A stretch of 64,000 bases of DNA from Patescibacteria group bacterium (GTDB taxonomy: Bacteria > Patescibacteriota > Patescibacteriia > UBA9570), in assembly GCA_041665365.1 (NCBI GenBank), contig JBAYIY010000006.1, forward strand, positions 19,602-83,601, given 5' to 3'. The notes beneath the pieces are model-generated. The model made no database searches. It was given only the letters and a program-made list of their open reading frames with translations, and was not told the DNA's origin. Of the stretch, positions 15,299 through 54,667 are shown piece after piece. Position numbers and translations under genes: made by a program. The number at the start of each line of letters is the position of its first letter. Within the stretch, counting starts at the first letter, position 1.

Positions 15299-16135
15299 GT
15301 GACACCTATGGCGAAACGAATTGGTAAGGATCGACTCACTATCACCATGCGACAAGATGTCTTAGCTGCGCTTGATAGCTTCATTAATGGTGATACCATT
15401 CGTAATCGTTCTCAAGCCATCGAACATATCGTTGCCCGTCATCTTGGCACTGGCATTGATACTTGTGTGATTTTAGCCAGTGGCCGTGAAGATCAATCGA
15501 TCAAATGTTTAAAACGCGTGCAAAATCGGCCTGTGATTGCCTATACCATTGAGATGTTGCGTCTGGCTAACATTCACAACATCATTATGGTAATAAATAA
15601 GAAATGTCCGGATATAAAACAATATTTGGGTAACGGTTTACAATACAGAGTTAATATTCAATATATTGAAGAAGACAATCCGACTGGCACGGCACAATCG
15701 TTGCAGAAGGTAAAAGGTCTGATCGATAAAACATTTTTATTGTTATATGGTGATGTACTGGCCGATATAGATATTCAGGAATTGGTTAGATTTCATCATG
15801 ACATGGATCATATTATAATGACCCTAGCCGTGACCGCCGCCACTAATCCATCTTTGTATGGTGTGGCCGAACTACAAGGTAAACGAATTTATCGCTTAAT
15901 CGAAAAACCAACTCAACTAAAAAAGAGTAATCTCGTCGTCGCTGGTGTGGCTGTGTGTGAACCTGAACTGTTTAAAGAAATACCAGAGCATTGTGAAAAT
16001 AAATATTTAGCCCGAGACATCCTCCCAGATTTAGCCCACCGTGGACAAATTGGCGGTTATCCTTTTTCCAACAAATGGTTTGATGTGTCCCATGAGGATG
16101 AATACACCCGCGCGCAAGCGGAGTGGGTGGAATAA
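15299..16135 (+). CDS. Ribbon-helix-helix (CopG-like) domain fused to a sugar-phosphate nucleotidyltransferase domain
   Basis: N-terminus RLTITMRQDVLAALDSFI... resembles an RHH domain. The rest (ILASGREDQ..., NPTGTAQSL, LLLYGDVLADIDIQ) resembles the NTP_transferase fold. Confidence 0.55.
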   Translation: MTPMAKRIGKDRLTITMRQDVLAALDSFINGDTIRNRSQAIEHIVARHLGTGIDTCVILASGREDQSIKCLKRVQNRPVIAYTIEMLRLANIHNIIMVINKKCPDIKQYLGNGLQYRVNIQYIEEDNPTGTAQSLQKVKGLIDKTFLLLYGDVLADIDIQELVRFHHDMDHIIMTLAVTAATNPSLYGVAELQGKRIYRLIEKPTQLKKSNLVVAGVAVCEPELFKEIPEHCENKYLARDILPDLAHRGQIGGYPFSNKWFDVSHEDEYTRAQAEWVE

Positions 16136-16683
16136 AACATTTTTTTTGGATTGTTATAAATATATTGCCGGGTATAATCCAATTGCCGTGGTGTGCGAAT
16201 AATTTCATCGTAATACCGGGGTTGCCAATGGAAATATTGATCCGGTTGTTTTTTTCGAATATAAAACGTGGTGACACCTTTATACCATCGAATTATATGC
16301 GGTAACGATGTGGGATGTAACATTGGATTATTTTGTTTTGTCACCCCACCGGTTTGATGAAACCCTCTGGTAGAGACGCGATTAATCGCGTCTCTACCAG
16401 AGGGTTTCATGTACACAATCCCATGCATGTGATCCGGCATGATCACAAACGCATCCAATTGCATATGTGGAAAATGTTCCGGAATGTTTAACCAATATTG
16501 ATGGGCTGTTTCACCAATATCCGATAAACACATATAACCGTTTTTAATAAAACCAAATGGGTTTTTGTATCGCTGTTTTACGCAAATCGTAATAAAATAC
16601 CACCCCGGTGTGGCATAATTCCAACCGGTTAATCGAATTGATGGTGTAAAATACCGTTGCCTATATAACATAAAACGCCCCAT
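16057..16683 (-). CDS. IS200/IS605-like HuH-Y1 transposase (REP-associated tyrosine transposase, RAYT-like), copy 1, with in-frame palindrome insert
   Basis: YFITICV...FVIMPDHMHGIV (HuH motif) and RQYIYNNP (catalytic Tyr region). A 52 bp perfect palindrome at 16358..16409 is translated in-frame as GRDAINRVSTRGF. The C-terminal tail probably reads into the convergent gene. Confidence 0.65.
   Translation of the reverse strand: MGRFMLYRQRYFTPSIRLTGWNYATPGWYFITICVKQRYKNPFGFIKNGYMCLSDIGETAHQYWLNIPEHFPHMQLDAFVIMPDHMHGIVYMKPSGRDAINRVSTRGFHQTGGVTKQNNPMLHPTSLPHIIRWYKGVTTFYIRKKQPDQYFHWQPRYYDEIIRTPRQLDYTRQYIYNNPKKMFYSTHSACARVYSSSWDTSNHLLEKG
16358..16409. repeat. Family-A palindrome variant (TGAAACCCTCTGGTAGAGACGCGATT|AATCGCGTCTCTACCAGAGGGTTTCA), 52 bp perfect
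   Basis: Read directly; inside RAYT copy 1. Confidence 0.9.
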
Positions 16684-17105: not shown

Positions 17106-18560
17106 GTGGCCCCCAACAACCTCCCCGTGTACGACAACGGGGATATCTTGAAGTTGACCGTCGCGGTCGACCCGAACATCGTTCGGGCTGACATGCCGGC
17201 GGTGAATCGCACGTCTGCGGAACTCAAGAACCTGGGCACGATCGTCCAGGACGCCCTGATCGAAGAGGGCAAGGAACTGGTGCAGGCCGGAATCGGCGAT
17301 GCCAACACGGAGTACACGCTCCGTGATTTGGCTGAGGCCATCAACTCGGCGGCACACCGGGATGTGCTGCCAATCTCTGGCCTCGTCACGCCGGACGCAC
17401 CGGCGTTCCACCTCGAGTACGGCGATGTTCGGGGTATCCACGCCCTGATCACTGTGCTCAAAAACTTCCTCGGCGTCCTCCTCGGCATCGAGGTTCGCGA
17501 CTACGTGACGATCACCCACGGTGGGCGCTCGGCGGTCTTTATGGCCGTCCGTTCATTCACGCAGTTCATGGTCGCTACCCTGAAGTCGATGGGCGTCGAG
17601 GGACCGCCAATGGTGGCGGTTCCAGTGGAAACCTGGGGAACCTACCCCAACATCGTCGCCCAGGCGCTGGGCGACGGGGTATTCCACCCGATCCCCTGCA
17701 GAGACGGCCTGCTCGACGCCGAAGCACTCGACGAAGCGTGCACGCGCAACCCGCGCATTCGCATGCTCATCTTCTGCAATCCGGTGAATCCGAGCGGCCG
17801 GACGTATGGATCCGATCGCATGGCGCGGATCGCCAGGATCGTGGCCAAACACAAGTTGTGCGTCCACGCCGATGACATGTACGCGATGTTTGCGTGGGTT
17901 CACCCCCATCGCAGCATCCTGCGCGCTGCCGCGGCGCTGGCGCACTCGGGTGAAAAGGAGGTTGGAGAGTGGGTCGCATCCCACACCACCCTCCTCACGG
18001 GTGTCATGAAGGCCGGGGGCTCGGGTTCCCGTGTGAACTTCATGGTCATCCCGAACGACAATCTGCGGGCTCGCTTCGTCGCGAACCAGGGCGACCTGTA
18101 CGGTCCGCCGAACATGATGGGGCAGCTGTTGCAGCTCGCCTTCATCAAGCACGGTGGGCCGGAGCGCGTCTGGCTCGAGATGAAGGAGCGGCGTGATGCC
18201 CTCCAGGCCAAGCTGACCGAGGTCGCCGGACGTATCACCGGCTGCCCGATCACCCTGACCTGGAGTGCTATGGAAGGCGGTTTCTACACCGCCATGCACC
18301 TCAACGGCATCGGTGGAATGAAGTACACCGATCGCAGCGGTACCTCCCGGGTCATCATGACGGGCGAGGATATGGCTCGGTTCCTCGTCCAGCGGGCTGG
18401 CATCGTCGCCACGCCCGATGTCGCGGCGTGCGTCGGTGACGTCACCTTCGCGCGCATCGCGTATGGCATGATGCGTCCGGAGACCGTCGAGGTTTTCGGC
18501 AACCAGTTGGCAGACGCCGTGATCGGGCTGTGCGCCGAAAACGGCCACAACCCGAAGTAG
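17106..18560 (+). CDS. PLP-dependent aminotransferase (class I/II fold) on a GC-rich, foreign-looking island
   Basis: 484 aa, GTG start with AGGA 8 nt upstream. NPSG, ADDMY and a VMKAGGSGSRVNF (SxSK..G.R.G-like) lysine motif. Codons are strongly GC3-biased, unlike the rest of the window. Confidence 0.6.
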   Translation: MAPNNLPVYDNGDILKLTVAVDPNIVRADMPAVNRTSAELKNLGTIVQDALIEEGKELVQAGIGDANTEYTLRDLAEAINSAAHRDVLPISGLVTPDAPAFHLEYGDVRGIHALITVLKNFLGVLLGIEVRDYVTITHGGRSAVFMAVRSFTQFMVATLKSMGVEGPPMVAVPVETWGTYPNIVAQALGDGVFHPIPCRDGLLDAEALDEACTRNPRIRMLIFCNPVNPSGRTYGSDRMARIARIVAKHKLCVHADDMYAMFAWVHPHRSILRAAAALAHSGEKEVGEWVASHTTLLTGVMKAGGSGSRVNFMVIPNDNLRARFVANQGDLYGPPNMMGQLLQLAFIKHGGPERVWLEMKERRDALQAKLTEVAGRITGCPITLTWSAMEGGFYTAMHLNGIGGMKYTDRSGTSRVIMTGEDMARFLVQRAGIVATPDVAACVGDVTFARIAYGMMRPETVEVFGNQLADAVIGLCAENGHNPK

Positions 18561-39505: not shown

Positions 39506-40609
39506 ATGAAATTTTCCTGCACCCAAGAAAATTTAAAGCACGGCCTACTCATCGTCAGTCGAGTAGCTAATAAAAATGCGAACTTACCTATCCTGCAAAA
39601 TGTTTTAATTAAAGCCCAGGACAATAAAATAGTTTTAGCCGCTACTAATTTAGAAATTGGTGTCCAAGCAACATTGCGTGCCAAGGTGGACACTGATGGA
39701 TCATTTACATTACCAGCGCAACTATTTAGTAATTATGTAGCTTTATTAACAACTGAGAAGATTGATTGTGAATTACAGCAAAACGAATTAAGGGTCACAG
39801 CTAATGGCCAGGCTACAGTATTAAAAGGAGAGGGTGCGGGCGACTTTCCAATTCTACCAACCGTGGAAGGTGGGCAACATTATTCTCTAGTACGAGGTGA
39901 TTTAGAGGTGGCTTTGCAACAGACCATTTTAGCAGCCGCCATTGATGAAACCCGCCCAGAGATCGCCGGGATTTGTTTAATGTTCAGCGATAAAAATTTA
40001 AAGCTAGCAGCAACCGATAGCTATCGTCTCGCGGAAAGAACGGCGCCTTTAACACAGGTGGGGGAGAGTATGAAAATAATTCTACCACAACGCTCGGCGC
40101 ATGAATTATTACGCTTAATACAATTCATTCAAATAGAAACAGTTGATTTATTTGTCACTGAAACACAAATTGCTTGTCGGTTGGGTGAAGTTGAGTTTAT
40201 CTCTAGATTAATCGAAGGAAAGTTTCCTGATTACGAACAGATTATTCCTAAAGCCGGACAAACTACGGTGAGTTTAGATAAGAATGATCTAATGAAAGCA
40301 GTTAAAGGAGCAGCCTTGTTTAGTAAAACTGGAGTAAATGATATCAATTTGACCTTTAATGCCACCGATCAAACATTGCAAATAAAGGCAGTTAATACCC
40401 AACTCGGGCAAAACGTTACTACCTTACCAGCTCAGGTGGCAGGCGATGATGTGACTATAGTGTTTAATTACCGCTTCTTACTGGATGGGCTGCAATGTTT
40501 AATTGGTAATGAGGTGATTTGTTTATTAAATGGTCAACTTAGCCCGGCGTTAATAAAAGGTGGAAGTGACGATCTGTTTAATTATATTATCATGCCAATT
40601 AAGCAGTGA
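39506..40609 (+). CDS. dnaN: DNA polymerase III subunit beta
   Basis: 367 aa, three-domain sliding-clamp pattern; follows dnaA. Confidence 0.9.
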   Translation: MKFSCTQENLKHGLLIVSRVANKNANLPILQNVLIKAQDNKIVLAATNLEIGVQATLRAKVDTDGSFTLPAQLFSNYVALLTTEKIDCELQQNELRVTANGQATVLKGEGAGDFPILPTVEGGQHYSLVRGDLEVALQQTILAAAIDETRPEIAGICLMFSDKNLKLAATDSYRLAERTAPLTQVGESMKIILPQRSAHELLRLIQFIQIETVDLFVTETQIACRLGEVEFISRLIEGKFPDYEQIIPKAGQTTVSLDKNDLMKAVKGAALFSKTGVNDINLTFNATDQTLQIKAVNTQLGQNVTTLPAQVAGDDVTIVFNYRFLLDGLQCLIGNEVICLLNGQLSPALIKGGSDDLFNYIIMPIKQ

Positions 40610-40902
40610 TGCAGGCCATTTCAAAACAAGACATTCTCAAGCGTCTTAACCAGGCTGGAGTGGCTAACACGGTGCAAGCTGCCATGGTGGTTGAAGCCTT
40701 TCAGCTATATTTGGCCAGTGAATTTCCAGATATTAATGCTAATGATTGCACGCCGTTATTTGTTCAAGGTGGTGTGCTAGTAGTGCGCTCAACTCATCCA
40801 GAATTAATGCACTGTTTACGCGATCGTCAGACCGATATCTGTGAATATGTTTTAAAAACCACTGGAAAAATTATTACGCGCCTACAATTTCGCACGAGTT
40901 AA
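40606..40902 (+). CDS. DUF721-like small protein (possible DciA-type helicase loader)
   Basis: 98 aa, translationally coupled to dnaN. Size and position match the DUF721/DciA genes common next to dnaA-dnaN. Confidence 0.4.
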   Translation: MMQAISKQDILKRLNQAGVANTVQAAMVVEAFQLYLASEFPDINANDCTPLFVQGGVLVVRSTHPELMHCLRDRQTDICEYVLKTTGKIITRLQFRTS

Positions 40903-43559
40903 TTGCCAGCATTTTTATTGCCGTTCGTGTTTTTATTTGTATTGCTGTTCTTATTGCTAGGTGAGTTGGTATTATTGGAGTTTGAATTTTTGTTACTGTT
41001 TGTATTACTATTATTTGTGTTAGTGTTGGTGCTACCAACACTGTAAGAAAACGACACGGTACTGGAAGTAACATTATCACGGTCGTTTGTTACGCGAACT
41101 GTTAATGAATGATTACCAGTGGTCAGAGAGGTTGGTACATAAGTGCTGGTAAAAGGTTGACTGGTTTTAGTATCAACTGGAATATTATCAATAATATATT
41201 CAACTTTTTTTATACTGCGATTTGTGCCCGGATTAATTCTAGCCGCCAATAAAAATGTTTTGCTAGTCAGTTTATCTCCACTAGCCGGAGAAATTATAGT
41301 AACAGTAGGGCTTTGATCAGCCGAGCGGAGATTACAATCTTCATATTCGGTTTTTTCTGTAATATAATCTGACTGTCCTTCCGCCCAGGCTTGAATAGCC
41401 TTTTCCCAAGATGAATACATTGGATCACTCTCTGGTTTGTCTGGTGCGGAACCAAGTGGGTCTTCTTTGCGCAGATACTGTAAGATGGTGTGTACTTCTT
41501 TAAACTCTTTCTTGACTTTAAACTCGGCTGGATATGTGTTCACACAACTATCTGGAATAATATGTTGTGTACCCTTATCAACATATTTTTCAACTGTCTC
41601 ACCAATTGCGCCGCTTAAAACTGGCTTGTTAGCCTTAACCGCATCTGGGGCGGTAAAAGATTCATTCGGTAAACCCTCAAGAATCCGACTCATGTAGTCA
41701 TTGGCAATTGGGGCGGCAATGATAACACCATCAGCCATATAATCCATCGCGTCATTATTGTTATTACCCGTCCAAATACCCGTGGCAAACGACGGTGTAT
41801 ACATTAATGTCCAAGCATCATGAAAATCTTGACTGGTGCCGGTTTTACCAGCAATCGTTTTTCCAGATATATTTAAAGCCGAAAAACCAGAGCGCGCGCC
41901 TTGGTCGGTTAAAACACTATTCAATTGTTTAACGGCATTTTTATCAACCACTTGAGAAGCAGAGTCGGTCCATTCATATAACACCTTACCAGTGCGATCT
42001 TCTACTTTTAAAATACTGGCTGTGGGATGGCGCTCACCTTCTCGAGCAAAGGTGGCAAAAGCCGAGGTGTGTTCTAATAATTTTACTTCACCACTCCCTA
42101 GCGCTAAAGCCAAACCATAAGTATCGCGATTTCCCAATGTGGTATAACCAAGACTATCGGCGGTATCGAGCACTTTATCTTTGCCAACCAAGTAGAGAGT
42201 TTTAACGGCAGGGATATTGAGAGATTGCCCCAAAGCGCGACGCATAGTAGTAGGACCAGAAGTACCCATACTGAAATTATGTGGGTGATAATTACCGCTT
42301 TCAGTTGGAAAATCAGTTTCTACATCAAACAAAGCAGTATTAGGATTGTAACCATTGGCAAAGGCGGTGGTATAGACAATAGGCTTAAAGGAAGAACCAG
42401 GTTGGCGCAGGCTGGTAGCGACATTAACTTGTCCATCATAATCAGCAGCATAATAATCTTTTGAACCAACCATGGCTAATATTTGACCCGTCTTGGCATC
42501 AAGAGAAACTAACGCGGCGTTGCTACCACCATATTTTTCAACCTTGACCATACCATCGGTAATAACCTGTTCAGCAATGGCCTGTTTATCATAATCCAGG
42601 GTGGTGGTTACTTTGAGACCTTGATTGATAAAGTTACTGCCAAAATCATCTTCTAGTTGGGTGATAACATAATCAACAAAATGTGGGGCATCTTTTTTGG
42701 CGGCGGTTTGCTTAATATCAACTGGTTCAAGCTTAGCGGCATCAGCCTGTTCTAGGGTGATGTATCCTTCCTCGGCCATACGCTCTAAAGTGAAATCTTT
42801 CCGTTCCAACAAAGCCTCCATTCCAGAATCAATTCGGCTGGGTTTTTGTGGTATGGCTGCCAAAAAAGCCGCTTGAGCCAAAGTCAGGTCAGCCGGACTC
42901 TTTTCAAAATAACTTTGGGCGCCAGCGGCCACGCCTAAATTTATACCACCATAAGACGCTTCGTTTAAATAAAATTCCAAAATCTGATCTTTACTGTATT
43001 TACGTTCTACCTCGATAGCCAAAATAAGCTCTTTTATTTTTCGCGACAGGCTTGATTCGTTACCAACAATAGCTAATTTAACAAATTGTTGAGTGATAGT
43101 TGATCCACCAACGCGACGTTCTGAAGATAAGGTAATGCCGGCGGAGCGGAGCAAAGCCAATGGGTCAAAACCGTGATGATTGTAAAAATTCTTATCCTCC
43201 AAGGCCACCGTCGCCTGTTTGAGATAAGGTGAAATAGCATCAATTTTTGTATAGGTGCGCCGGACGTCACGACCGGTTTCATAGAGCATGTGTTCACCAC
43301 TGCGATCGTAGATTTTTGTACTCTCAGCAATCACGCGATTTTGTAATTCTTCAGTACTGGGTAGATCTTTGGCAAAATAGGCAAATACAGCGATGCCGGC
43401 TATCACCACCAAGGCTGTACCAATTAGTCCAATTAATACTAAACGTTTTAACCATTTTTTCCAGTTTTTCTTCACGTGTCCCTTAAATCCCTCTCGGCGT
43501 TTACTGGGGTGTGTTTTATCCATAGATAAAACACACTGTAGCAGAAAATGAGCGATCAT
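40899..43559 (-). CDS. Class A penicillin-binding protein (PBP1A; transglycosylase + transpeptidase) with C-terminal Ig-like region and N/S/T-rich low-complexity tail
   Basis: GT51 motif EDKNFYNHHGFD, transpeptidase SSFKP / SLN / KTGTS, C-terminal TNTNTNNSNTNSNKNSNSNNTNS. Confidence 0.85.
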   Translation of the reverse strand: MIAHFLLQCVLSMDKTHPSKRREGFKGHVKKNWKKWLKRLVLIGLIGTALVVIAGIAVFAYFAKDLPSTEELQNRVIAESTKIYDRSGEHMLYETGRDVRRTYTKIDAISPYLKQATVALEDKNFYNHHGFDPLALLRSAGITLSSERRVGGSTITQQFVKLAIVGNESSLSRKIKELILAIEVERKYSKDQILEFYLNEASYGGINLGVAAGAQSYFEKSPADLTLAQAAFLAAIPQKPSRIDSGMEALLERKDFTLERMAEEGYITLEQADAAKLEPVDIKQTAAKKDAPHFVDYVITQLEDDFGSNFINQGLKVTTTLDYDKQAIAEQVITDGMVKVEKYGGSNAALVSLDAKTGQILAMVGSKDYYAADYDGQVNVATSLRQPGSSFKPIVYTTAFANGYNPNTALFDVETDFPTESGNYHPHNFSMGTSGPTTMRRALGQSLNIPAVKTLYLVGKDKVLDTADSLGYTTLGNRDTYGLALALGSGEVKLLEHTSAFATFAREGERHPTASILKVEDRTGKVLYEWTDSASQVVDKNAVKQLNSVLTDQGARSGFSALNISGKTIAGKTGTSQDFHDAWTLMYTPSFATGIWTGNNNNDAMDYMADGVIIAAPIANDYMSRILEGLPNESFTAPDAVKANKPVLSGAIGETVEKYVDKGTQHIIPDSCVNTYPAEFKVKKEFKEVHTILQYLRKEDPLGSAPDKPESDPMYSSWEKAIQAWAEGQSDYITEKTEYEDCNLRSADQSPTVTIISPASGDKLTSKTFLLAARINPGTNRSIKKVEYIIDNIPVDTKTSQPFTSTYVPTSLTTGNHSLTVRVTNDRDNVTSSTVSFSYSVGSTNTNTNNSNTNSNKNSNSNNTNSPSNKNSNTNKNTNGNKNAGN

Positions 43560-43573
43560 GCTAGTGTAATATT

Positions 43574-44740
43574 ATGGACATATTATTAGAAAGAGGCGTT
43601 GATACAATTTACCCATCACTAAAAAAACTCAAAGAAAAACTGGCCACTGGCGATAAACTTACCCTATATTTAGGAGTGGATCCAACCGGGGCATTATTAC
43701 ACATCGGTCATACAATACCTTTACGAAAACTAGCTCAATTTCAACAGGCGGGGCACAAAGTGATTTTATTAATGGGCGACTTTACGGCCGTTATTGGGGA
43801 TCCGACTGGGAAAGATAAAACCCGTGTTCCTCTAACATCAGGGCAGATTTTAAAAAATGCCGAAACCTATAAAGAGCAAGCCAGTAAAATTTTAGATTTT
43901 AATCACCCAATCAATCCAGTTGAAATTCGTTATAACAGTACCTGGTTGGCCAAACTTACTTTCACTGAGGTTATAAAACTGGCCGCACATTTTACCGTGC
44001 AACAAATGTTAGAACGAGACATGTTTGAACGGCGCATTAAACATGGGCAGCCCATTTCACTGCATGAGTTTTTGTATCCTTTGATGCAGGGTTATGATTC
44101 TGTGGCGATGGATGTTGATTTAGAAGTTGGTGGGACAGATCAAACGTTTAATATGTTGGCCGGAAGAACTTTACAACGCGAAATCAATCAACGGGAAAAA
44201 TTTGTTATCACCGTGCCGTTATTGGCTGATGCCAATGGAGTAAAAATCGGCAAGTCAGAAGGTAATGTGATTGCCATTACGGCTAAACCGGCCGATTTAT
44301 ATGGCAAAATTATGGCTTTAGGTGACGATGTAGTAGAACAGTGTTTTGAATTATGCACCGATCTACCCATGACTGAAATTAAACAAATTGTTCAAGGCAA
44401 TCCGAAACAAGCCAAGATGAGATTAGCTCGTGAAATTGTTACTATTTATCATTCAGCTGAAGCCGCGGCGCAAGCTGAACAGGAATTTAACACAGTGTTT
44501 TCCAAACACGGTAAACCGAGTGACATACCAAACAAATTAATTCCAAACACTACTGAGCCACCGGCGATACTTGTGGAACTAGCTCTGGCCGAAAATAAAT
44601 CTGCGGCGAAACGATTATTTGAACAAGGGGGAGTAAAAATAAATGATCAAAAAATAACCGATTGGAAAAAACCGTTAGTGTTAAAATCCGGCGATGTGAT
44701 TCAAGTTGGAAAAAGAAATTTTATCGCAGTGTACGAATAA
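43574..44740 (+). CDS. tyrS: Tyrosine--tRNA ligase
   Basis: HIGH (LHIGHTIPL) and KMSKS-like (KIGKSEG) motifs, C-terminal S4 domain. Last five codons and the stop lie in a family-B palindrome. Confidence 0.9.
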   Translation: MDILLERGVDTIYPSLKKLKEKLATGDKLTLYLGVDPTGALLHIGHTIPLRKLAQFQQAGHKVILLMGDFTAVIGDPTGKDKTRVPLTSGQILKNAETYKEQASKILDFNHPINPVEIRYNSTWLAKLTFTEVIKLAAHFTVQQMLERDMFERRIKHGQPISLHEFLYPLMQGYDSVAMDVDLEVGGTDQTFNMLAGRTLQREINQREKFVITVPLLADANGVKIGKSEGNVIAITAKPADLYGKIMALGDDVVEQCFELCTDLPMTEIKQIVQGNPKQAKMRLAREIVTIYHSAEAAAQAEQEFNTVFSKHGKPSDIPNKLIPNTTEPPAILVELALAENKSAAKRLFEQGGVKINDQKITDWKKPLVLKSGDVIQVGKRNFIAVYE

Positions 44741-44757
44741 TATTCGTACACTGCGAT
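44723..44757. repeat. Family-B palindrome, short copy (ATCGCAGTGTACGAATA-A-TATTCGTACACTGCGAT)
   Basis: Between convergent tyrS and galT; supplies the tyrS stop codon. Confidence 0.85.
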
Positions 44758-45723
44758 TTACAAATGTACTCTATAAAAGTTCGCAGCTTCTTCCGGTGGG
44801 ATCGGATTTATAATTAAACCAGACCCGATTTCAACGCCAGCCCACGCCGAACCACGTGGGATTATCTTCATGTAGAGATGTTGATCGGGGTCGGCGACTA
44901 ATTGATGAAAATAATAATTGTACGGTAAATGCAATTCATGATTAATGGTGCGCAATAATTTCTTCATAATATTTGCCCATGAATAACGCTCGGAATGCGT
45001 TAGTAGGGTGATATTGTCACGGTGCTGCTTAGGCAATATCCAAACCTCGTAATTATGCATGGAAGCATATGGGCAAAAGGCGATCACATTTTTATCAGCC
45101 CAAACAAAACGAGCACTGACAGCCTCTTTCTTAATAACGTCACAATAAATACAATCTCCAAACATGGAGCGATGAATTTGCACACGATTGGATTTATCTA
45201 AGATATGGGGTGGTACAAACTCTGTCGCGAAAATTTGTGAGTGGGAGTGACAGAGTGATGCTCCGGCTCGACCACCGGCATTCTTAAAAATCAACACATA
45301 ACGCAAACGCTTATTTTTAGCTAAACTTTTGGTGCGGCGCGCATAACACTCCAGAATTTCAGCCACTTGTTTGGTGGGTAAATCTTCCAGATGAGTGTTT
45401 GGATCAGGTGTTTCAATTACCAGTTCCTGTTCTCCATAAGCCTGATCATTATCCGGGGAAACTGCCGGGAAGCCATTTTTAATAACACACACGCGCCAAT
45501 GTTTTTTTCCGCCAACCACCAGCAGCATGGTTTCATGAACAATATTGTGTGGTGAAAAGCGACTATCTTCCGGACGCACTAACGGGCACTCATCGCCAGA
45601 CGAATCATTGAATTGATTAGGACGCAAAATTCGACCCGGCGCAATTAAGACATATTTTTCTTGGATGTAATCTTTACGAATTTGCGCCCTAAGCTTCTTC
45701 ATAATCACTCTTGGTTGGATCAA
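44758..45723 (-). CDS. galT: Galactose-1-phosphate uridylyltransferase-like (HIT-superfamily, GalT type)
   Basis: 321 aa; CHSHSQIF (HxHxQ) active-site motif and zinc-ligand Cys/His pattern. Confidence 0.65.
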   Translation of the reverse strand: MIQPRVIMKKLRAQIRKDYIQEKYVLIAPGRILRPNQFNDSSGDECPLVRPEDSRFSPHNIVHETMLLVVGGKKHWRVCVIKNGFPAVSPDNDQAYGEQELVIETPDPNTHLEDLPTKQVAEILECYARRTKSLAKNKRLRYVLIFKNAGGRAGASLCHSHSQIFATEFVPPHILDKSNRVQIHRSMFGDCIYCDVIKKEAVSARFVWADKNVIAFCPYASMHNYEVWILPKQHRDNITLLTHSERYSWANIMKKLLRTINHELHLPYNYYFHQLVADPDQHLYMKIIPRGSAWAGVEIGSGLIINPIPPEEAANFYRVHL

Positions 45724-46168
45724 TTAAAAAACCGGCCAAATCTTTTTTGCCCACCAACACAGGATAAATTAGTATTTTTCGATCAACTAAACTAGCAATT
45801 GTATCGATATGGCGATTACGTAAATGGAGGTGCAATTTAACATACGGCCGAACACTGATTCCATTAGTGGCCGGGATAACACGAATATCATACAAGCCCG
45901 GGATTTGTTTACGCAGTTTTGGCGTAATGGTGGTACGAATGGTTTCGCGAACTTTTTGAAAATTATGTTTTGTCAGTTCTAATTTAGGAAACAATTTTTT
46001 GAATTGAGTATAAACAGTATATAAACCCAATTTTTTTGCAACAGAAATATCTATGGCCGTGGTGCGAGCGCCAGTATCAATTTTGGCTTTACGGCGAATA
46101 AATTTTTTGGTACCAGGTAAAAAAATTTTTACTTCTTCGGCTAGACCAATAATAGTTTTTTTTGGCAT
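45689..46168 (-). CDS. RimK-associated retropepsin-like (putative ATP-dependent zinc protease, DUF785-like) protein
   Basis: 159 aa; IDTGARTTAI (D-T-G-A) and C-terminal VGKKDLAGFLIDP. Paralogous to the C-terminal domain of the next gene. Confidence 0.55.
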   Translation of the reverse strand: MPKKTIIGLAEEVKIFLPGTKKFIRRKAKIDTGARTTAIDISVAKKLGLYTVYTQFKKLFPKLELTKHNFQKVRETIRTTITPKLRKQIPGLYDIRVIPATNGISVRPYVKLHLHLRNRHIDTIASLVDRKILIYPVLVGKKDLAGFLIDPTKSDYEEA

Positions 46169-46172
46169 AAAA

Positions 46173-47552
46173 TTATTTCTTATTACGGTTAGGGTTAATC
46201 AAAAAACCGGCTAGATCTCTGCGGCCAATCACCATGGGATGAGATAATTTATTATCCAAAGCGACCGCGACGGTACTAGTTAAACGGCGACCACCTAAAT
46301 CGAAAGCGAGCGGCAGTTTAGGGCGAATAAGATATTGACCCTCAGACCGAACCGCCGCCACATCTACCCAATCGGACTGGAGGGCTAATATTTTAGTGCG
46401 AAAATTATCTTCGGCGGCTTGAGCTCGATCAACGGCCACGCTAGCGGGTAGCTGCAGGGTTTGTATAGCTGCCAGTGCCTCCGTAAAACCTAATTTAATA
46501 GCGGTATCTTTTGTGATGGTGGTTGATGTTAAACCGGTATCAATGAGGGCACGTACCGGCATGGCTATAGCATTTTTACCCTGTACTGTAACCGGTTCAT
46601 AAATTCCCAAGACCGGATTCAACAGATCGCTTTCACCATCTTGTTTGGCGAATAACTGTTTGCAAACACTCAAGCCTTTAGTAGCACTGGTAATAGTTAA
46701 GCCAGCCACGCGGTCAAGCCGATCACGCAAGGTAATCCGATTGGCATTTTGAATCTCTAAACCAGGATGAGCATTAACTTCTAAAATCATCGGCCCATAC
46801 TGTTTATCTAAAACAATATCAACACCCGCATAACCTAAACCAACTGCCTTAGCTGCTTCAATGCTGATACGCAGAATATTATCCCAATCTGGAATTTTAA
46901 TATTACTCAGTGGTGTATTAAAATCTGGATGCAGACTGATTTGCCCCAATTGTTTAGCTGTCGCAAAGGTGGTCGTGCCATTAACTAAATCAACTCCAAC
47001 GCCAATGCCACCTAAATGCAAATTAGCTTTTCCGTCAGATTGCTTGGTCGGTAGCCGCAGCATGGCCATAACTGGAACTGAGTTAAACACTAATATTCGA
47101 ATATCCGGTACCCCTTGATATGAGACATTTTTAAATACCTCAGCTAACCGTAACCGCTCTTCACAGTAGGCGATATCAGGAATATTCGATAAAGAAAAGT
47201 TACCATCTAAAATATTACTGGTATGCCGCTGTAAATCGGCAATATCATAAACGTTTTCGCCGGTACTAATCCAGTGGCCTTGTTTATCTTTGCCATAGAG
47301 AATCACAATACCACCACCACCCAAACCGAAGTTTGGTTTCAAAACAAAGCTGCTCGGTAAACTTGACCAATCAAAATTAAATAATTCTTTACGATTTTTA
47401 ATAACGCCGAATAACTTAGCCGAAGGCAAACCGGCGGCAAATAATTTTTCTTTTGTGGCCAATTTGTTATTAGCCGTTTTGACGGCCTGACCACTGTTGT
47501 ATGGGTGGATGAATACCAAGTTTCTGGCATTCATACCGAGAACCTTGCCCAT
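46173..47552 (-). CDS. RimK-family ATP-grasp ligase (alpha-L-glutamate-ligase-like) fused to a C-terminal retropepsin-like domain
   Basis: N-terminal ATP-grasp pattern (LKPNFGLGGGGIVI..., EVNAHPGLE). C-terminus LIDTGLTSTTI...VIGRRDLAGFLINP matches the preceding gene. Confidence 0.65.
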   Translation of the reverse strand: MGKVLGMNARNLVFIHPYNSGQAVKTANNKLATKEKLFAAGLPSAKLFGVIKNRKELFNFDWSSLPSSFVLKPNFGLGGGGIVILYGKDKQGHWISTGENVYDIADLQRHTSNILDGNFSLSNIPDIAYCEERLRLAEVFKNVSYQGVPDIRILVFNSVPVMAMLRLPTKQSDGKANLHLGGIGVGVDLVNGTTTFATAKQLGQISLHPDFNTPLSNIKIPDWDNILRISIEAAKAVGLGYAGVDIVLDKQYGPMILEVNAHPGLEIQNANRITLRDRLDRVAGLTITSATKGLSVCKQLFAKQDGESDLLNPVLGIYEPVTVQGKNAIAMPVRALIDTGLTSTTITKDTAIKLGFTEALAAIQTLQLPASVAVDRAQAAEDNFRTKILALQSDWVDVAAVRSEGQYLIRPKLPLAFDLGGRRLTSTVAVALDNKLSHPMVIGRRDLAGFLINPNRNKK

Positions 47553-49117
47553 TAGGGTTGTTGTTTACCAATAAAAAGTTTGCGGAAGCGGAAGTATTCG
47601 ATGACGCGTAAACCGGAGAAGCGACCCAACACGATATTAATCACTAAAGTTAATAGAATCAATTCCGGATAACCCATTAACAAAGTCGAGAACTCATCCC
47701 AAGTGATAATCAAATAACTAATGATGGCCAGAGCTAAGGTTTCGGCCGTTAGAAAAATAGCTTGGCGATTACCTTGTTCAATTTGCACTTCAACAAACTT
47801 TTCTGTTAGCGTCATCATCACCAAGATCGGGAAAATAGAAATAGCTAAAATGTCAGTCTCACCATACAGGGCAGATAATATTAAGGCACCGAACAAAGTT
47901 ACACTGACAATGGTTAGAACAATGGCCATACGGGGTAAATACAAAATGCGTAACCGCCGCGCAGCGATCCGCGCTAGCGTAGCGGCCCCCAAGAGCAGCA
48001 AAAATGCCAAAACACCATATCTTAATCCGGTGATTGTAAAAGATAGCGTCATAACGGTGGGCACATATATACCAAAAGCCTTCACTCCCACCACTTGCCG
48101 ACCAAAGGAAATCAATGTCGCTACCACTGGTAAAGCCAGTAATAAAAATATTGTGTCCGAACCGACACCATTGTTGATCAAATAATTTACACCGTAGGAA
48201 ATAAAGTTAAACGGTGTAATCTGCTCCAAAGCGCGTTGGCTATGACGGCCGATCAATTGATAATCAATATTTTCTTGTTGTAGCCCTCCAACCAACTGGT
48301 CAACGGTCGGGTTAGCCAGAATAGATTCTAAAGCCGGCGGGGTAGTTAACATTATGTACTGTGGTACCAGCGCATTGTAAGTCGTTTGGGCGATACGGCC
48401 CAAAGCGCCACTACTAGGACGATCACTAATTTGGATGATGGCTTTTTGGGCAAAACTAATCATGCCTGACGTATCAGCTGAGCCACTACTGTTTAATATT
48501 CGACCCAACTCGGCGAGAGAATCTAATCCAATATTCTGCGCCGTCCAGACAATTACCACCTTGGCTTGAGAAATATCAGTTTCAGAAGATACTAACTGTT
48601 CAGCAATATTACGGGTTAGAACGTAATCTAAGTTTGAATCATTGCGCGGCCGAACTATTACTAACAAAGTACCATTACGTTGGGCATATTGGCGGTAGTA
48701 TCTAGCCTGATCACGACTGACGCTATCATCGGTAATAAGTAAAACGACATCTTTGGCGACAGAAACAAGTAAATCATCTCGTACCGTTTGATCGCCAGAG
48801 GTAATAGTTAAGTTGGCTTTATATGTACCGGATTGAGCATAAATATGAGACGCATCGATACCTTGAAAGCTTTGGCCATCACCAAAATCCCATTTATAGG
48901 TTAACGTGCTATCACTCGGGCCGCTGGAAGCGGATGCATCAAATAATACGTTTCGACCCACGGCCACGTTTTTATCCGGGCCAGCATTGGCAATTAATGG
49001 TGCTGGCGTAATTATTTCCTCTACTACACTGTCTGTTTGTGCTGACGTGAGTATCGGTACATACAAAAGTGCCGATAAAATAATGTATCTAGACATGTTT
49101 TTAGGCCAATGAAACAT
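47552..49117 (-). CDS. Secreted PKD-domain plus 7TM membrane protein (7TM/inactive-transglutaminase-like family associated with RimK operons)
   Basis: Signal peptide, PKD-like region (TYKWDFGDGQSF...GTYKANLTI), a roughly 170 aa extracytoplasmic domain, then seven predicted TM helices. Stop/start junction with the ATP-grasp gene. Confidence 0.45.
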   Translation of the reverse strand: MFHWPKNMSRYIILSALLYVPILTSAQTDSVVEEIITPAPLIANAGPDKNVAVGRNVLFDASASSGPSDSTLTYKWDFGDGQSFQGIDASHIYAQSGTYKANLTITSGDQTVRDDLLVSVAKDVVLLITDDSVSRDQARYYRQYAQRNGTLLVIVRPRNDSNLDYVLTRNIAEQLVSSETDISQAKVVIVWTAQNIGLDSLAELGRILNSSGSADTSGMISFAQKAIIQISDRPSSGALGRIAQTTYNALVPQYIMLTTPPALESILANPTVDQLVGGLQQENIDYQLIGRHSQRALEQITPFNFISYGVNYLINNGVGSDTIFLLLALPVVATLISFGRQVVGVKAFGIYVPTVMTLSFTITGLRYGVLAFLLLLGAATLARIAARRLRILYLPRMAIVLTIVSVTLFGALILSALYGETDILAISIFPILVMMTLTEKFVEVQIEQGNRQAIFLTAETLALAIISYLIITWDEFSTLLMGYPELILLTLVINIVLGRFSGLRVIEYFRFRKLFIGKQQP

Positions 49118-49604
49118 ACTGTTGTGTGGTTAAGGCGATAGCTAAGGCATCCGCGGCATCATCGGGTTTGGGTAGTTCACTCAAACCAAAGGTTGCCTGC
49201 ACCATATATTGTATCTGTTGTTTGTCGGCTTTGCCATAGCCAGTCATACAGTGTTTAACTTGCAGGGGGGTGACTTCCAATAACGGAATGTTATGCAAAG
49301 CGATATTTAAAAGTATTATGCCTCGAGCCTGACCAACATCGAAAGCAGTGGTAACGTTACGCGCAAAGAATAGTTTTTCGCAACCAGCTCGACTGATGGT
49401 GTAGCGCGAGAGTAGATTTTGTAACTGTTCATTGAGTAGAACTAAACGTTCACTAAGGGAATGTTTGGCCGGGGTGCGCAAGACACCATATTCCAAAACT
49501 GTTTTATCTTGAATAATGCCATAGCCGGTAATAGCCAAGCCAGGATCAAACCCAATCACAATATCACTTTTGGGCATTGTGTGAGATGTCGACGACGTCT
49601 TCAT
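49101..49604 (-). CDS. ruvC: Crossover junction endodeoxyribonuclease RuvC
   Basis: IVIGFDPGLAITGYGII and catalytic Asp/Glu pattern. Confidence 0.85.
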   Translation of the reverse strand: MKTSSTSHTMPKSDIVIGFDPGLAITGYGIIQDKTVLEYGVLRTPAKHSLSERLVLLNEQLQNLLSRYTISRAGCEKLFFARNVTTAFDVGQARGIILLNIALHNIPLLEVTPLQVKHCMTGYGKADKQQIQYMVQATFGLSELPKPDDAADALAIALTTQQYVSLA

Positions 49605-50094
49605 TATCTGTTAATTCTTCGAGTAAGTCGGCAAATTTTTGTAACACAACTGGATCAGTTAAGGGAACAGTGTAAGTTGGTTGATCTTTAGTTTGAAATA
49701 AGTAGCTAACCGAACCTGGACCGCCGAGTTTTCCACCGTACGAATGTAAGGTAGTTTTGATAAATCCGGCGGTACGATTGGTGTTATCTGTGGCACATTG
49801 TACCAGCAAGGCCACTCCACCCGGACCATAGCATTCATAGACGATTTCTTCGATTTGTTGACCGGGCAGCTCACCAGCGCCCCGTAAAATGGCGCGTTCA
49901 ATTACATCCTTAGGCATGTTGCTTTCGCGAGCCGTATCAATGGCTAATCGTAGGCTAGAATTCATGGCGGGGTCTTTGCCTTTCTTCGCAGCAATGCTAA
50001 TATTTTTCGAGAGCTTGGTAAACAAAGCCCCGCGCTTATTATCAGCTGCGCCCTTTGATCGCTTAATAGTTGCCCATTTAGAGTGTCCAGACAT
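49564..50094 (-). CDS. yebC: YebC/PmpR-family transcriptional regulator
   Basis: MSGHSKWATIKRSKGAADNKRG start. Shorter than typical YebC, so the C-terminus may be reduced. Confidence 0.75.
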   Translation of the reverse strand: MSGHSKWATIKRSKGAADNKRGALFTKLSKNISIAAKKGKDPAMNSSLRLAIDTARESNMPKDVIERAILRGAGELPGQQIEEIVYECYGPGGVALLVQCATDNTNRTAGFIKTTLHSYGGKLGGPGSVSYLFQTKDQPTYTVPLTDPVVLQKFADLLEELTDNEDVVDISHNAQK

Positions 50095-50141: not shown

Positions 50142-51137
50142 ATGCTCGATAGCCAAAACATGTTGTCATCAATTGATATGTTAGCCCAGCAAGTTAGTCA
50201 TGCCTGGAAGGATACAGCCAACTTACAATTATCGATTCCAACTAAATCGATTCAACAAGTAGTCTTGTTTGGTATGGGTGGTTCTGCTTTAGGTATGGAT
50301 GTAGTGCAACATTTATATACTGAACAGACTAAAGTACCTTTACTGATAGTTAATGACTATAAAGTACCTGGTTATATTAATGAACACACTTTAGCGATCT
50401 TTTCCAGCTATTCCGGCACAACCGAAGAAACGCTCATGGCCGCGAAAATTGTCCAACAACGCACCAAACATGTCGCCGTCATCACGACCGGTGGATCACT
50501 GGCGCAATTACCTGGGTATATTATCAACCCAACCTATAATCCCTGTGGGCAACCACGGATTGCCGTTGGTTATGCCGTCACTGGTTTGTTACGGATTTTA
50601 CAGCGTGCTGGAATTATTCAGATAACTGATCAGGACATAGACAATGCCATCCATTTTATTGATGGTAATCGGGAGCTATTAAATGATGCGGCCAAGGAAA
50701 CAGCGGAACGGTGTAAAAATAAATTATTACTTTTCATTGGGAGCGAACACTTACTGGGCAATGTTCATATTGTGACCAACCAAACCAATGAAAATGGCAA
50801 ACACTTTGCTGGATATTTTGCCATCCCAGAACTCAACCATCATTTATTAGAGGGTTTAAGCAATCCGGCTGCCACTAAACAATTACATCTGGTCTTGATT
50901 GAATCAAATTTATATCACGAGCGCGTACAAAAACGCTATGACATTACCAAGCAGGTCTTAGATAAACAGGGGATTAGTCATGAACAATTTATTACTACGG
51001 CCACCACCCCATTACAACAATCATTTGAAGTCTTACAATGGGGCAGTTATTTGAGCTTTTACATCGCGGCTGCGCACAACATTGATCCGTCGCCGATTCC
51101 ATGGGTAGATTATTTTAAACATGCGTTGGCTAAATAA
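50142..51137 (+). CDS. Bifunctional phosphoglucose/phosphomannose isomerase (SIS domain, archaeal type)
   Basis: 331 aa; two SIS-domain pattern (VLFGMGGSALG, SYSGTTEE). Confidence 0.6.
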   Translation: MLDSQNMLSSIDMLAQQVSHAWKDTANLQLSIPTKSIQQVVLFGMGGSALGMDVVQHLYTEQTKVPLLIVNDYKVPGYINEHTLAIFSSYSGTTEETLMAAKIVQQRTKHVAVITTGGSLAQLPGYIINPTYNPCGQPRIAVGYAVTGLLRILQRAGIIQITDQDIDNAIHFIDGNRELLNDAAKETAERCKNKLLLFIGSEHLLGNVHIVTNQTNENGKHFAGYFAIPELNHHLLEGLSNPAATKQLHLVLIESNLYHERVQKRYDITKQVLDKQGISHEQFITTATTPLQQSFEVLQWGSYLSFYIAAAHNIDPSPIPWVDYFKHALAK

Positions 51138-52650
51138 GCTTGGTCCAAGCGCAGTCTTAGGGTTAACCATTGGGCTGTTTATTTGGTATCAATCGATTCA
51201 GACTTTTCCTGACCCCGATGCGTATTATCATGCCAGACTTGCGGCTATCATGCTGCAATCTGGTCTGCCCACCACATTTCCCTGGCTGCCATTAACAACC
51301 TTATATCAACATTTTGCTGATCACCATTTACTGTATCATGTAGCCTTAATGCCCGCTGTGGCATTATTTGGTCCAATTATTGGGGTTAAATTAATGCAAG
51401 TTATATTTGCTAGTTTAGTGATAATTATTTGTTATTTTATTTTGCGCCGGTGGCATATTCCATACCAAGCCCCAGCTCTTTTGCTGTTACTTAGTAGTTA
51501 TCCCTTTCTAGTAAGGATTAATTTAGTAAAAGCTTCCGCCGTGGCGATTTGTTTATTTTTATTGATTCTATATTTTTTATTGCAAAAACGGTATGGGTTA
51601 GTAGGCATTCTAACACTAATTTACACGCTAACTCACGGTGGATTTATTTTAGCAGTGGTTTTAGCGACTGCCGTTTGGTCGGCCGACAGTATCGCCCAAA
51701 TATTTAAAGCAAAACAATATAAACCTATCTTACCAACGGGAATATTTGTTGTGTGGGCAGCCATCATTATTGGAATATTAATCAACCCATCGTTTCCAAA
51801 TAATCTGGCTTTTTTGTGGGCGCAAGTATTTCAGATTGGGGTGGTTAATTATCAGTCGGTGATCTCAGTTGGGGCGGAATGGTACCCATTTCCACTAACC
51901 GAATTAGTCGAAGCGATTAGTGTATTATTAATCGGTGTAGTGGCCACCATTCCAGTGTGGCTGAGGCAGTGGCGTAAAGTGTTAAGTGATGAAAAAGCGG
52001 TGTCTTTATTATTACTCACCCCAGTTTTTTTTATTTTAACTTTACGCTCACGCCGGTTTGTTGAATATTTTATCCCATTACTGTGGTTGTTGATTTGTTT
52101 ATTAGTGCTACCGGCTTGGCAGGCGGGCATTATTCAACCGGTTTGGCAAAGCATCACGCGCCGGCTTGGGCACTGGGCGAAGCTATTAAATATGTACATC
52201 GTAGTCACAACTATTGGTACAATCGTGATTGGTGTAATCGGGATCGGACGCAGTTTTTATCAAGCAAAACCAATTGATCGGTTTGCCCAAGCCGGTGCTT
52301 ATTTACAAAGTGTAGCCGAACCAAATGAAATAGTATTTCATGGGCGGTGGGATGACTTTCCGGCGCTATTTTATTATGCACCGAAAGCGTCATACATGGC
52401 TGGGCTTGATCCAACTTTCCTGTATTTAGCTGATAAAAATTTATATCAACACTGGAATGATATTGCCACGGGCAGGGCTAAACAACAAACGGCTAGTAAC
52501 ATCCGTGATTATTTTCAAGTGCGCTATGTTGTGGTAGATGAATCTGATTCACATACGCAATTAATGTTAGCTTATTTGTTGCGTGATAAAACCGCCAAGC
52601 TAGTTTTTCATCAGAAACCAATGGCAATTTTTAAATTAGTTGAATTATGA
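51121..52650 (+). CDS. Polytopic membrane protein, GT-C-fold glycosyltransferase-like (paralog 1)
   Basis: About 12 TM helices with a C-terminal soluble domain. First extracytoplasmic loop FPDPDAYYH (DxD-like). Shares blocks (RINLVKA, THGGFIL, FPNNL, AEWYPF, DDFPAL, GLDPTFLYLA) with the next gene. Confidence 0.4.
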   Translation: MRWLNKLGPSAVLGLTIGLFIWYQSIQTFPDPDAYYHARLAAIMLQSGLPTTFPWLPLTTLYQHFADHHLLYHVALMPAVALFGPIIGVKLMQVIFASLVIIICYFILRRWHIPYQAPALLLLLSSYPFLVRINLVKASAVAICLFLLILYFLLQKRYGLVGILTLIYTLTHGGFILAVVLATAVWSADSIAQIFKAKQYKPILPTGIFVVWAAIIIGILINPSFPNNLAFLWAQVFQIGVVNYQSVISVGAEWYPFPLTELVEAISVLLIGVVATIPVWLRQWRKVLSDEKAVSLLLLTPVFFILTLRSRRFVEYFIPLLWLLICLLVLPAWQAGIIQPVWQSITRRLGHWAKLLNMYIVVTTIGTIVIGVIGIGRSFYQAKPIDRFAQAGAYLQSVAEPNEIVFHGRWDDFPALFYYAPKASYMAGLDPTFLYLADKNLYQHWNDIATGRAKQQTASNIRDYFQVRYVVVDESDSHTQLMLAYLLRDKTAKLVFHQKPMAIFKLVEL

Positions 52651-54080: not shown

Positions 54081-54111
54081 ATAACACCCGGTTTCATACT
54101 GGGTGTTATTT
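54081..54111 (+). terminator. Hairpin (aataacaccc-loop-gggtgttatt) after the membrane-protein pair
   Basis: 10 bp perfect stem directly after the stop codon, followed by T-rich sequence. Confidence 0.5.
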
Positions 54112-54113
54112 TG

Positions 54114-54141
54114 TAGAGACATGCCATGGCATGTCTCTACT
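54114..54141. repeat. Family-A palindrome, 28 bp perfect core (GTAGAGACATGCCATGGCATGTCTCTAC)
   Basis: Read directly; between convergent genes. Confidence 0.9.
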
Positions 54142-54148
54142 GTTTTTA

Positions 54149-54559: not shown

Positions 54560-54667
54560 AGTGTTCTTTAAGTATTAAATTAATTATTAATGGAACTATA
54601 CATAGATTAAACGATTTTGTAAAGACTAGGTTGACTTCTCGGGAATTGTAATGGTAAAGTACACACC

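Follow-up and report, generated by a model that had tools for sequence, protein, structure and literature searches.

A Patescibacteria-wide ligase–protease fusion coupled to a PKD-7TM membrane protein, related to RloABC- and RimBK-type systems

We analysed a 64,000-nucleotide stretch of DNA from a Patescibacteria group bacterium (assembly GCA_041665365.1, contig JBAYIY010000006.1, positions 19,602 to 83,601; 'the window' is this whole stretch). Its minus strand carries a gene for an ATP-grasp ligase fused to a retropepsin-like protease domain (g2), preceded by a gene for a PKD-domain membrane protein with a seven-transmembrane (7TM) region (g1) and followed by a gene for a stand-alone paralogue of the protease domain (g3). 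The locus is a rearranged, lineage-wide version of RloABC- and RimBK-type systems, and not a wholly new one: the 7TM region of g1 is homologous to that of RloB, the ligase is RloC/RimK-like, and the protease domain of g2 retains the catalytic Asp. An earlier note on this DNA had pointed to the fusion and to a PKD domain in place of an obvious transglutaminase domain at this locus. Both are in fact the standard architecture across Patescibacteria, and it is the second, stand-alone protease copy that was gained in the window's clade.

A conserved neighbourhood of an ATP-grasp ligase, a 7TM protein whose transglutaminase domain is inactive and a DUF785 protease, predicted to form the same peptide-ligase system, was reportedly described by Iyer et al. 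in Mol Biosyst in 2009. The earlier note called the neighbourhood functionally uncharacterised, which is outdated, as RloABC was characterised by genetics and structure determination in 2025 (Lormand et al., mBio, PMC12239564) and a RimB–RimK hybrid has been described (PMC11957791). In P. aeruginosa, RloA is a secreted retropepsin-like protein with paralogues A2 and A3, RloB combines an inactive transglutaminase domain with 7TM, and RloC is a cytoplasmic ATP-grasp protein (PMC12239564). RloA cleaves runs of at least eight Glu; the rloA1-3 triple deletion causes hypo-osmotic and beta-lactam sensitivity and misshapen cells, and deletion of rloB or rloC suppresses these defects (PMC12239564). The system is presented as an essentially proteobacterial one that arose from the rim locus, with 96% of the matches in a survey of RloB falling in Proteobacteria (PMC12239564). 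RimK synthesizes poly-alpha-Glu and glutamylates ribosomal protein S6; RimB trims the Glu tails, cleaves runs of at least eight Glu, and binds and stimulates RimK. In the hybrid RimBK of Desulfotalea psychrophila (DP2392), the protease is N-terminal (residues 1-163) and active on poly-Glu tails, and such hybrids occur chiefly in Flavobacteriales and Rhodobacterales (Little et al. 2025, JBC, PMC11957791). Full-text literature searches returned no description of the Patescibacteria form; an earlier mention in Iyer et al. 2009 is possible. The main text of a Patescibacteria transposon-sequencing (Tn-seq) paper does not mention these families.

Results

The features of the three genes are as follows.

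47552..49096, minus strand: g1, RloB-like membrane protein of 514 aa (signal peptide, PKD, alpha/beta domain, 7TM, basic C-terminal helix)
49040..49096, minus strand: g1, predicted Sec signal peptide, MSRYIILSALLYVPILTSA with Q after the predicted cleavage point (direct reading of the sequence; low model confidence)
48782..49003, minus strand: g1, extracytoplasmic PKD domain, residues 39-112 in 521-aa numbering (PKD_4, E 8e-21)
48167..48781, minus strand: g1, alpha/beta ectodomain, residues ~113-317, where RloB carries the inactive transglutaminase
47555..48166, minus strand: g1, 7TM (PF14402) and cytoplasmic C-terminal helix (G-L-R-x-x-E-Y-x-R-F)
47550..47554, minus strand: g1/g2 stop/start overlap TAATG (cccTAATGggc), base 47552 common to both genes
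46173..47552, minus strand: g2, RloC/RimK-like ATP-grasp ligase with C-terminal retropepsin-like domain
46647..47552, minus strand: g2, RloC/RimK-like ATP-grasp ligase domain, residues 1-302
46176..46616, minus strand: g2, retropepsin-like domain, residues 313-459, beta-rich in the structure model
46533..46541, minus strand: g2, D338-T339-G340, the fused copy reading D-T-G-L
45689..46168, minus strand: g3, stand-alone retropepsin-like paralogue of 159 aa
46067..46078, minus strand: g3, D31-T32-G33-A34 (motif K-I-D-T-G-A)

A ligase and a retropepsin-like domain in one polypeptide

The N-terminal part of g2 is, as the earlier note had proposed, an ATP-grasp domain resembling RimK and alpha-L-glutamate ligases. 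Residues 10-282 match ATPgrasp_ST (E 8e-63), and the best-scoring named family is TIGR02291, 'alpha-L-glutamate ligase-like' (E 4.8e-81, 272 bits, positions 12-291 of 317); PRK10446 gives 35 bits against a cutoff of 331. In Foldseek searches with the AlphaFold2 (AF2) model of g2 (predicted local distance difference test score, pLDDT, 88.4), the ligase domain matched ArgX, LysX, RimK and the cyanophycin synthetase CphA (E ~1e-10). The motifs for nucleotide and Mg show no variation within the family, and the same holds for the KPNxGxGGxG loop and for D245, E258 and N260. A short, flexible linker (residues 303-312, of low confidence in the model) leads to the C-terminal domain.

Retropepsin-like domains of clan AA are beta-rich and dimeric, span ~130-150 aa and carry a D-T/S-G motif. 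The C-terminus of g2 was rightly assigned to this fold by the earlier note: a profile of the g2 family hits two crystal structures of RloA, 9g58 and 9g59, over profile positions 337-465 (E 1e-5 to 4e-5) and also 2pma over the protease region, the domain itself scores 24.2 bits with Asp_protease_2, just under the cutoff of 24.3, and precomputed PF05618 matches are found in many g2 homologues. D338 and G340 are kept in at least 90% of the family sequences, and T339, R410 and G443 are invariant.

The protease domain is duplicated, one copy being fused to the ligase. g3 matches PF05618 (30.9 bits, cutoff 27) and shares 29% identity with the C-domain of g2 across 129 aa (E 1e-13); the RloA structure 9g58 lines up with g3 at the K-x-D-T-G-A and R-P motifs. 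The D-T-G motif stands in both copies and is conserved in the family, but the D-T-G-A that the earlier note read in the stand-alone paralogue is found in g3 alone. In the g3-carrying subclade (window positions 46533-46550 and the related loci L007 and L008), the fused copy reads ALIDTGL, SLVDTGL or VRIDTGL against the family consensus AKIDTGA, which g3 retains. This drift suggests, from sequence comparison, divergence after duplication, as would be expected if the copies had come to divide the work to some extent; heterodimers of the g2 C-domain and g3 would fit with it, though it is no evidence for them. The 59 clusters of g3 orthologues (53% identity or more) consist entirely of stand-alone proteins of ~158 aa and are confined to the close clade.

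Neither g2 nor g3 has a signal peptide, a transmembrane (TM) segment, a hydrophobic N-terminus or a Cys; for g2 this includes the protease domain, which has neither Cys nor signal peptide. A disulfide is present in the periplasmic RloA proteins and absent from cytosolic RimB (PMC12239564). Both protease copies of the window thus appear to be of the cytoplasmic type.

g1 is a PKD-alpha/beta-7TM membrane protein

The earlier note described g1 as a secreted PKD-domain protein with seven TM helices. PKD and 7TM were borne out by hidden Markov model (HMM) searches and the AF2 model, but the protein is better described as an integral membrane protein with an ectodomain than as secreted. A hydrophobicity scan and the AF2 model (mean pLDDT 83.8) agree on an N-terminal signal sequence, about seven TM helices and a basic cytoplasmic tail, and the model orders the chain as PKD (a beta-sandwich), an alpha/beta domain of six strands, a juxtamembrane helix, the seven TM helices and a basic amphipathic C-terminal helix. 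In this predicted topology the ectodomain of g1 would lie outside and its tail inside, with the ligase and the proteases in the cytoplasm. In Foldseek searches of the PDB, the PKD domain matches those of ColG and ColH with a target TM-score of up to 0.87 (ColG 0.85-0.87).

The membrane region is the part shared with RloB. Residues 320-514 match 7TM_transglut (PF14402; E 2e-29; 103 bits, cutoff 25), as do all 35 g1 homologues examined. The NCBIfam model of RloB aligns to g1 only over profile positions 296-505 of 508 (67.9 bits against a cutoff of 900, E 7e-19). Conservation of g1 peaks in the 7TM region and the cytoplasmic tail; the invariant polar and charged residues are Q341, R383, Y393, E439, E485, R504, E507 and R510. 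Since several charged residues are invariant, the conservation pattern suggests that the 7TM region may have a role beyond anchoring.

Between PKD and the TM region lie ~190 aa that are modelled as six beta-strands alternating with helices. The earlier note had seen no obvious transglutaminase domain here, and a hidden one can be rejected: none of the 35 homologues has a transglutaminase match at a Pfam E-value of up to 1, and none was seen in the AF2 fold or by Foldseek. Nor did the domain match any Pfam family in the 35 homologues, and Foldseek found no convincing PDB match for it or for the 7TM bundle. A profile of the middle domain run against the PDB returned designed helical repeat proteins alone, which we consider spurious. 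Among 1.84 billion proteins, the same profile matched just 149 cluster representatives; full-length matches are ~480-550 aa long, with the domain beginning after ~100-160 N-terminal residues, and all five divergent matches checked with Pfam, including two longer ones (657 and 743 aa), have the PKD-X-7TM arrangement. Given this context, the small number of representatives and the lack of Pfam or PDB relatives, the middle domain appears to be a family-specific ectodomain standing in place of the inactive transglutaminase of RloB. Its conserved residues (D130, W191, T192, K225 and Q244) form no recognisable catalytic set. Weak Foldseek matches to sialic acid esterases raised the possibility of an SGNH-esterase or OatA-like domain, which we rejected because neither Ser nor His is conserved.

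The module is standard in Patescibacteria

The ligase–protease fusion, ~465 aa long, is common: more than 1,800 clusters match at E <= 0.001 among the candidates examined, and a one-genome-per-species scan gave at least 584 relatives, the best 80 of which all align over query residues ~3-457. The window is from a Kerfeldbacteria-like metagenome-assembled genome, Kerfeldbacteria being the closest named relatives, and the fusion occurs in lineages named Kerfeld-, Falkow-, Moran-, Jackson-, Dojka-, Pacei- and Saccharibacteria. A similar spread is seen for PKD-7TM proteins 500-560 aa in length. Some loci carry the automated third-party annotation (TPA) labels Bdellovibrionales, Gammaproteobacteria or Bathyarchaeia; these are probably misassignments, since the gene order in them is the same.

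Gene order was compared by calling open reading frames (ORFs) in 86 loci and running the proteins of the window against them; removal of the window itself and of duplicates left 82 (L001 and L002 are copies of the window's own contig). g2 is a full-length fusion in all 82. The earlier note had staked its proposal on co-occurrence in other genomes, and g1 lies directly upstream of the fusion in 80 of the 82 loci, the other two contigs being truncated; the two genes overlap or are close in relatives too. Further upstream stand ruvC (67/82) and yebC (57/82). A gene for a class A penicillin-binding protein (PBP) lies downstream in 59 loci, or in 49 of the 57 that have at least 6 kb of downstream sequence. 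In half of the loci (41/82; among them L003-L006, for example L004:7529-10293), between one and four further ATP-grasp genes separate g2 from the PBP gene. The typical arrangement is yebC-ruvC-g1-g2-(0-4 RimK/CphA-like ligases)-class A PBP.

The window has g3 and g4, a gene described below, at the place of these ligases, and no extra ATP-grasp gene was found elsewhere in it. g3 is present in 3 of the 82 loci and g4 lies downstream of g2 in one (L009); these two genes alone are clade-specific. The extra ligases of relatives are RimK-family-like or resemble cyanophycin synthetase, GshB and NAGGN synthetase. We considered whether those looking 'Ddl-like' or 'GSH-S-like' are true D-Ala-D-Ala ligases and rejected this, as NCBIfam places them as RimK-family-like and cyanophycin-synthetase/GshB-type, below equivalog cutoffs. 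A multi-ligase peptide pathway beside a class A PBP may be general in Patescibacteria.

Seven loci (L039, L041, L049, L052, L069, L070 and L083) contain a second ORF similar to g1 upstream of yebC, which probably has the PKD domain alone in common with it.

Layout of the locus and its surroundings

yebC, ruvC, g1, g2, g3 and g4 are six head-to-tail genes on the minus strand, running from 50094 to 44758. The features around the module are as follows.

49101..50094, minus strand: yebC and ruvC, co-oriented, upstream of g1
49117, minus strand: alternative in-frame upstream ATG of g1, giving 521 aa; it would overlap ruvC
44758..45702, minus strand: g4, GalT/HIT-superfamily nucleotidyltransferase-like, ATG start at 45702
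44723..44757, minus strand: intrinsic terminator-like hairpin (16-bp stem, then a T-rich tail), 3' of g4 and facing the convergent tyrS
40899..43559, minus strand: class A PBP (transglycosylase, transpeptidase and Big_7), the conserved downstream neighbour of the module

The start of g1 had been placed at 49117. Position 49096 is more likely, judging from the sequence: the public annotation starts there, homologues align from it, and it lies 4 nt past the stop of ruvC. The stop and start shared by g1 and g2 at base 47552 can be read directly as TAATG, an arrangement that points to translational coupling. A gap of 4 nt separates g2 from g3, and g3 overlaps g4 by 14 nt. The overlap, the 4-nt gap and the single terminator make g1, g2 and g3 one operon, an arrangement kept in relatives. 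As the ruvC stop is just 4 nt from the g1 start, yebC and ruvC probably share the transcript with g1, and on the sequence the simplest reading is a single transcript from yebC to g4. Promoter-like matches occur upstream of yebC, with a frequency no higher than in shuffled sequence.

The earlier note described three genes between 44758 and 49117, all of which are there, and left out a fourth, g4. This gene matches GalP_UDP_transf (E 4e-14) and scores 101 bits with PRK11720, far under the cutoff of 448; it is probably a co-transcribed passenger. Overall, every family assignment proposed in the earlier note was recovered by the HMM, profile and structure searches.

In the window's clade tyrS lies on the opposite strand between the module and the class A PBP gene. 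Beyond the latter, dnaA and dnaN (37884-40609) adjoin it, which leaves about 5-10 kb at most between the module and the likely replication origin; DciA is annotated on the public copy of the contig. On the other side, two tandem paralogous polytopic membrane proteins of 509 and 476 aa (51121-54077; mutual match E ~1e-70) are divergent from the yebC operon and adjoin yebC in several relatives. They have no Pfam match on record and by eye resemble glycosyltransferase-C or ArnT-type enzymes. They are followed by a cluster of small genes (54100-59900) whose products have signal peptides, with T4SS_pilin (PF18895) annotated on the public contig copy.

A more distant island (16000-19200) has a G+C content of ~0.51 against ~0.41 for the genome. 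It holds an ORF that by eye resembles an IS200/REP-type Y1 transposase (16057..16683, minus strand) and a GC-rich aminotransferase-like ORF of 484 aa (17106..18560, plus strand), flanked by long palindromic hairpins at about 16770-16833 and 18788-18842, which match microRNA (miRNA) hairpin models on both strands below gathering scores. Ribosomal RNA (rRNA) as the source of the GC-rich 16-20 kb stretch was rejected, as no rRNA was found. The island is probably a horizontally acquired cassette.

Discussion

A proposed membrane-tethered ligase with a built-in peptidase

By analogy with the Rlo and Rim systems, we propose that the module is a ligase held at the membrane, which makes acidic peptides or peptide tails and carries its own peptidase to trim them, with the envelope as the target; we put the chances of this scheme a little short of even. 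At the expense of ATP, the ligase domain would join amino acids (most likely alpha-L-glutamate, on the model of RimK) to a carboxylate acceptor, giving acidic peptide tails or free peptides. The retropepsin domains would dimerise, either two fusion copies together or a fusion copy with g3, and would cut acidic runs in the way of RimB and RloA, the outcome being a self-limiting cycle of synthesis and then trimming. The 7TM protein, made in step with the ligase, would hold the enzyme at the membrane, and might either export the product or relay to the enzyme an envelope state sensed by its ectodomain. The fusion argues that synthesis and cleavage take place on the same molecule and in the same compartment; if the 7TM region exports anything, the cargo would then be a processed product and not a long polymer. 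The output may be cell-envelope or cell-wall homeostasis, as suggested by the gene block that the module regularly shares with a class A PBP and additional peptide ligases and by the phenotypes of Pseudomonas rlo mutants.

Several results weigh against this scheme. The window's proteins lie below the cutoffs of the families on which it is modelled: g2 scores 272 bits with TIGR02291 against a curated cutoff of 314, and 65.5 bits with the RimK family model TIGR00768 against 143.4, while the protease copies reach 23-31 bits with the RloA, RloA2 and RloA3 models (cutoffs 210-280) and 23 bits with the RimB model NF052261 (cutoff 200). No substrate candidate was found in the window, in that no ORF has an [ED] run of at least five or an acidic tail. 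For the 7TM region of g1, Foldseek found no similar solved structure in the PDB. The link to the PBP gene could in part be inherited gene order, and in the window the opposite-strand tyrS cuts that gene off from the module. Finally, no glutamylation of Pseudomonas RpsF (S6) by the RimBK hybrid was seen (PMC11957791), so that fused ligases may have other substrates.

The main rival holds that the target is a wall polymer or a peptidoglycan precursor: the ATP-grasp enzyme, along with the ligases that adjoin it in relatives, would attach amino acids to a lipid- or nucleotide-linked wall precursor, akin to the ATP-grasp D-aspartate ligases that build cross-bridges, with the 7TM protein as flippase or acceptor and the protease domain as an editor of the product. 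The conserved synteny with a class A PBP fits it, as do the Pfam name of the ligase family ('sugar-transfer associated ATP-grasp'), the Ddl-type ligases among the fold matches of g2 and the cell-wall-type phenotypes of Pseudomonas rlo mutants. However, the ligases found nearby belong to the RimK family and the CphA/GshB type and are neither Ddl nor Mur enzymes, the conserved block contains no Mur, Fem or undecaprenyl-related genes, and short stem peptides fit poorly with an endopeptidase that needs long acidic runs. We regard a wall-precursor role as unlikely.

Glutamylation of ribosomal protein S6 by g2, with removal of the tails by the fused protease and with the 7TM gene as a mere neighbour, is to our mind improbable. 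RimK and RimB are indeed homologues of the ligase and the protease, the latter shares the cytoplasmic type of RimB, and RimBK is a precedent for the fusion. Yet g2 fits TIGR02291 (272 bits) far better than the RimK family model (65 bits, cutoff 143), the coupling to the 7TM gene is invariant and translational, and about half of the relatives have additional ATP-grasp genes immediately downstream, of which many are RimK-family-like.

The combination of ATP-grasp enzyme, protease and membrane protein also bears a superficial likeness to a cluster for a ribosomally synthesized and post-translationally modified peptide (RiPP), in which the ligase would modify a precursor peptide, the protease remove its leader and the 7TM protein export it; PsnB-type graspetide ligases are among the weaker fold matches. 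We give this very little credence: the g1/g2 overlap, the 4 nt between g2 and g3 and the g3/g4 overlap leave no space for a precursor gene, the top sequence and fold matches are RimK, LysX and CphA and not graspetide ligases, and the module sits inside the conserved yebC-ruvC ... PBP block in every lineage examined and not in a variable island.

That tight packing and inherited gene order simulate a functional unit is the hardest to credit: the flanks are unrelated housekeeping genes (yebC, ruvC, tyrS, pgi) and g4 is passenger-like, but the three domain families are also linked in Proteobacteria, where genetics puts them in one pathway, ligase and protease are physically fused, g1 and g2 overlap at stop and start, and the pair is kept in 80 of the 82 loci while downstream genes vary.

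Implications

The tethered ligase–peptidase scheme has a more far-reaching version, which we think distinctly doubtful, in which the module is a Patescibacteria-wide membrane machine whose short acidic peptide is made and processed in the cytoplasm and passed via the 7TM region to the wall or surface. If true, it would amount to a lineage-specific envelope decoration or regulation, with a genetic tie to the class A PBP and perhaps, by way of the PKD ectodomain, a bearing on the epibiotic lifestyle, and the 7TM_transglut domain in general, that of RloB included, would be a peptide translocase or transferase.

Short of that, the locus supplies comparative leads on Rlo, which was characterised only in 2025. 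At least several hundred species-level genomes of Patescibacteria, which are very small and have few accessory systems, have kept a homologous ligase/7TM pair. The transglutaminase ectodomain is dispensable and replaceable, and the 7TM core and cytoplasmic tail are highly conserved. The protease can apparently act in the cytoplasm, fused to the ligase, which constrains models that require periplasmic cleavage. Persistent linkage to a class A PBP and to RimK-like and CphA-like ligases supports a cell-envelope peptide pathway and names candidates for it. These are natural 'domain-swap' and 'fusion' experiments that constrain Rlo-type systems, and they reveal no new principle. What the comparisons point to is a conserved, envelope-linked module across a major and poorly understood bacterial lineage, a source of leads and not a demonstrated new mechanism.

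Comparison with known systems

The closest known counterpart is RloABC, with which the module shares a 7TM_transglut protein, a PF05618 peptidase with D-T-G-A and operon linkage, and to whose RloC its TIGR02291-like ATP-grasp protein appears akin. An envelope role is suggested for both, here by the synteny with the PBP gene and in Pseudomonas by the beta-lactam, cell-shape and osmotic phenotypes. In contrast to the periplasmic RloA, the window's protease lacks a signal peptide and disulfide Cys, lies C-terminally on the ligase and would be cytoplasmic; g1 has PKD and a new alpha/beta domain where RloB has the inactive transglutaminase; and the host is a member of the Patescibacteria whose proteins all score under the NCBIfam Rlo cutoffs.

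The RimK-RimB pair of the Pseudomonas RimABK system joins a cytoplasmic ATP-grasp enzyme of the alpha-L-glutamate ligase type with a cytoplasmic retropepsin-like endopeptidase, and the module appears to do likewise. The window's ligase, however, appears to belong to the RloC/ATPgrasp_ST branch and not to the RimK family proper, and the module has an obligatory 7TM partner and no RimA. There is no pointer to S6 as its substrate, and rpsF is not in the window.

RimBK shares with g2 the union of a retropepsin-like protease and a RimK-like ATP-grasp ligase in one polypeptide. The RimBK ligase is of another subfamily, and the accessible part of the report mentions no 7TM partner for RimBK (PMC11957791), in contrast to the window's module. 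The order of domains is also reversed, with the ligase (residues 1-302) before the protease (313-459) in g2, which indicates that the fusion in Patescibacteria arose independently.

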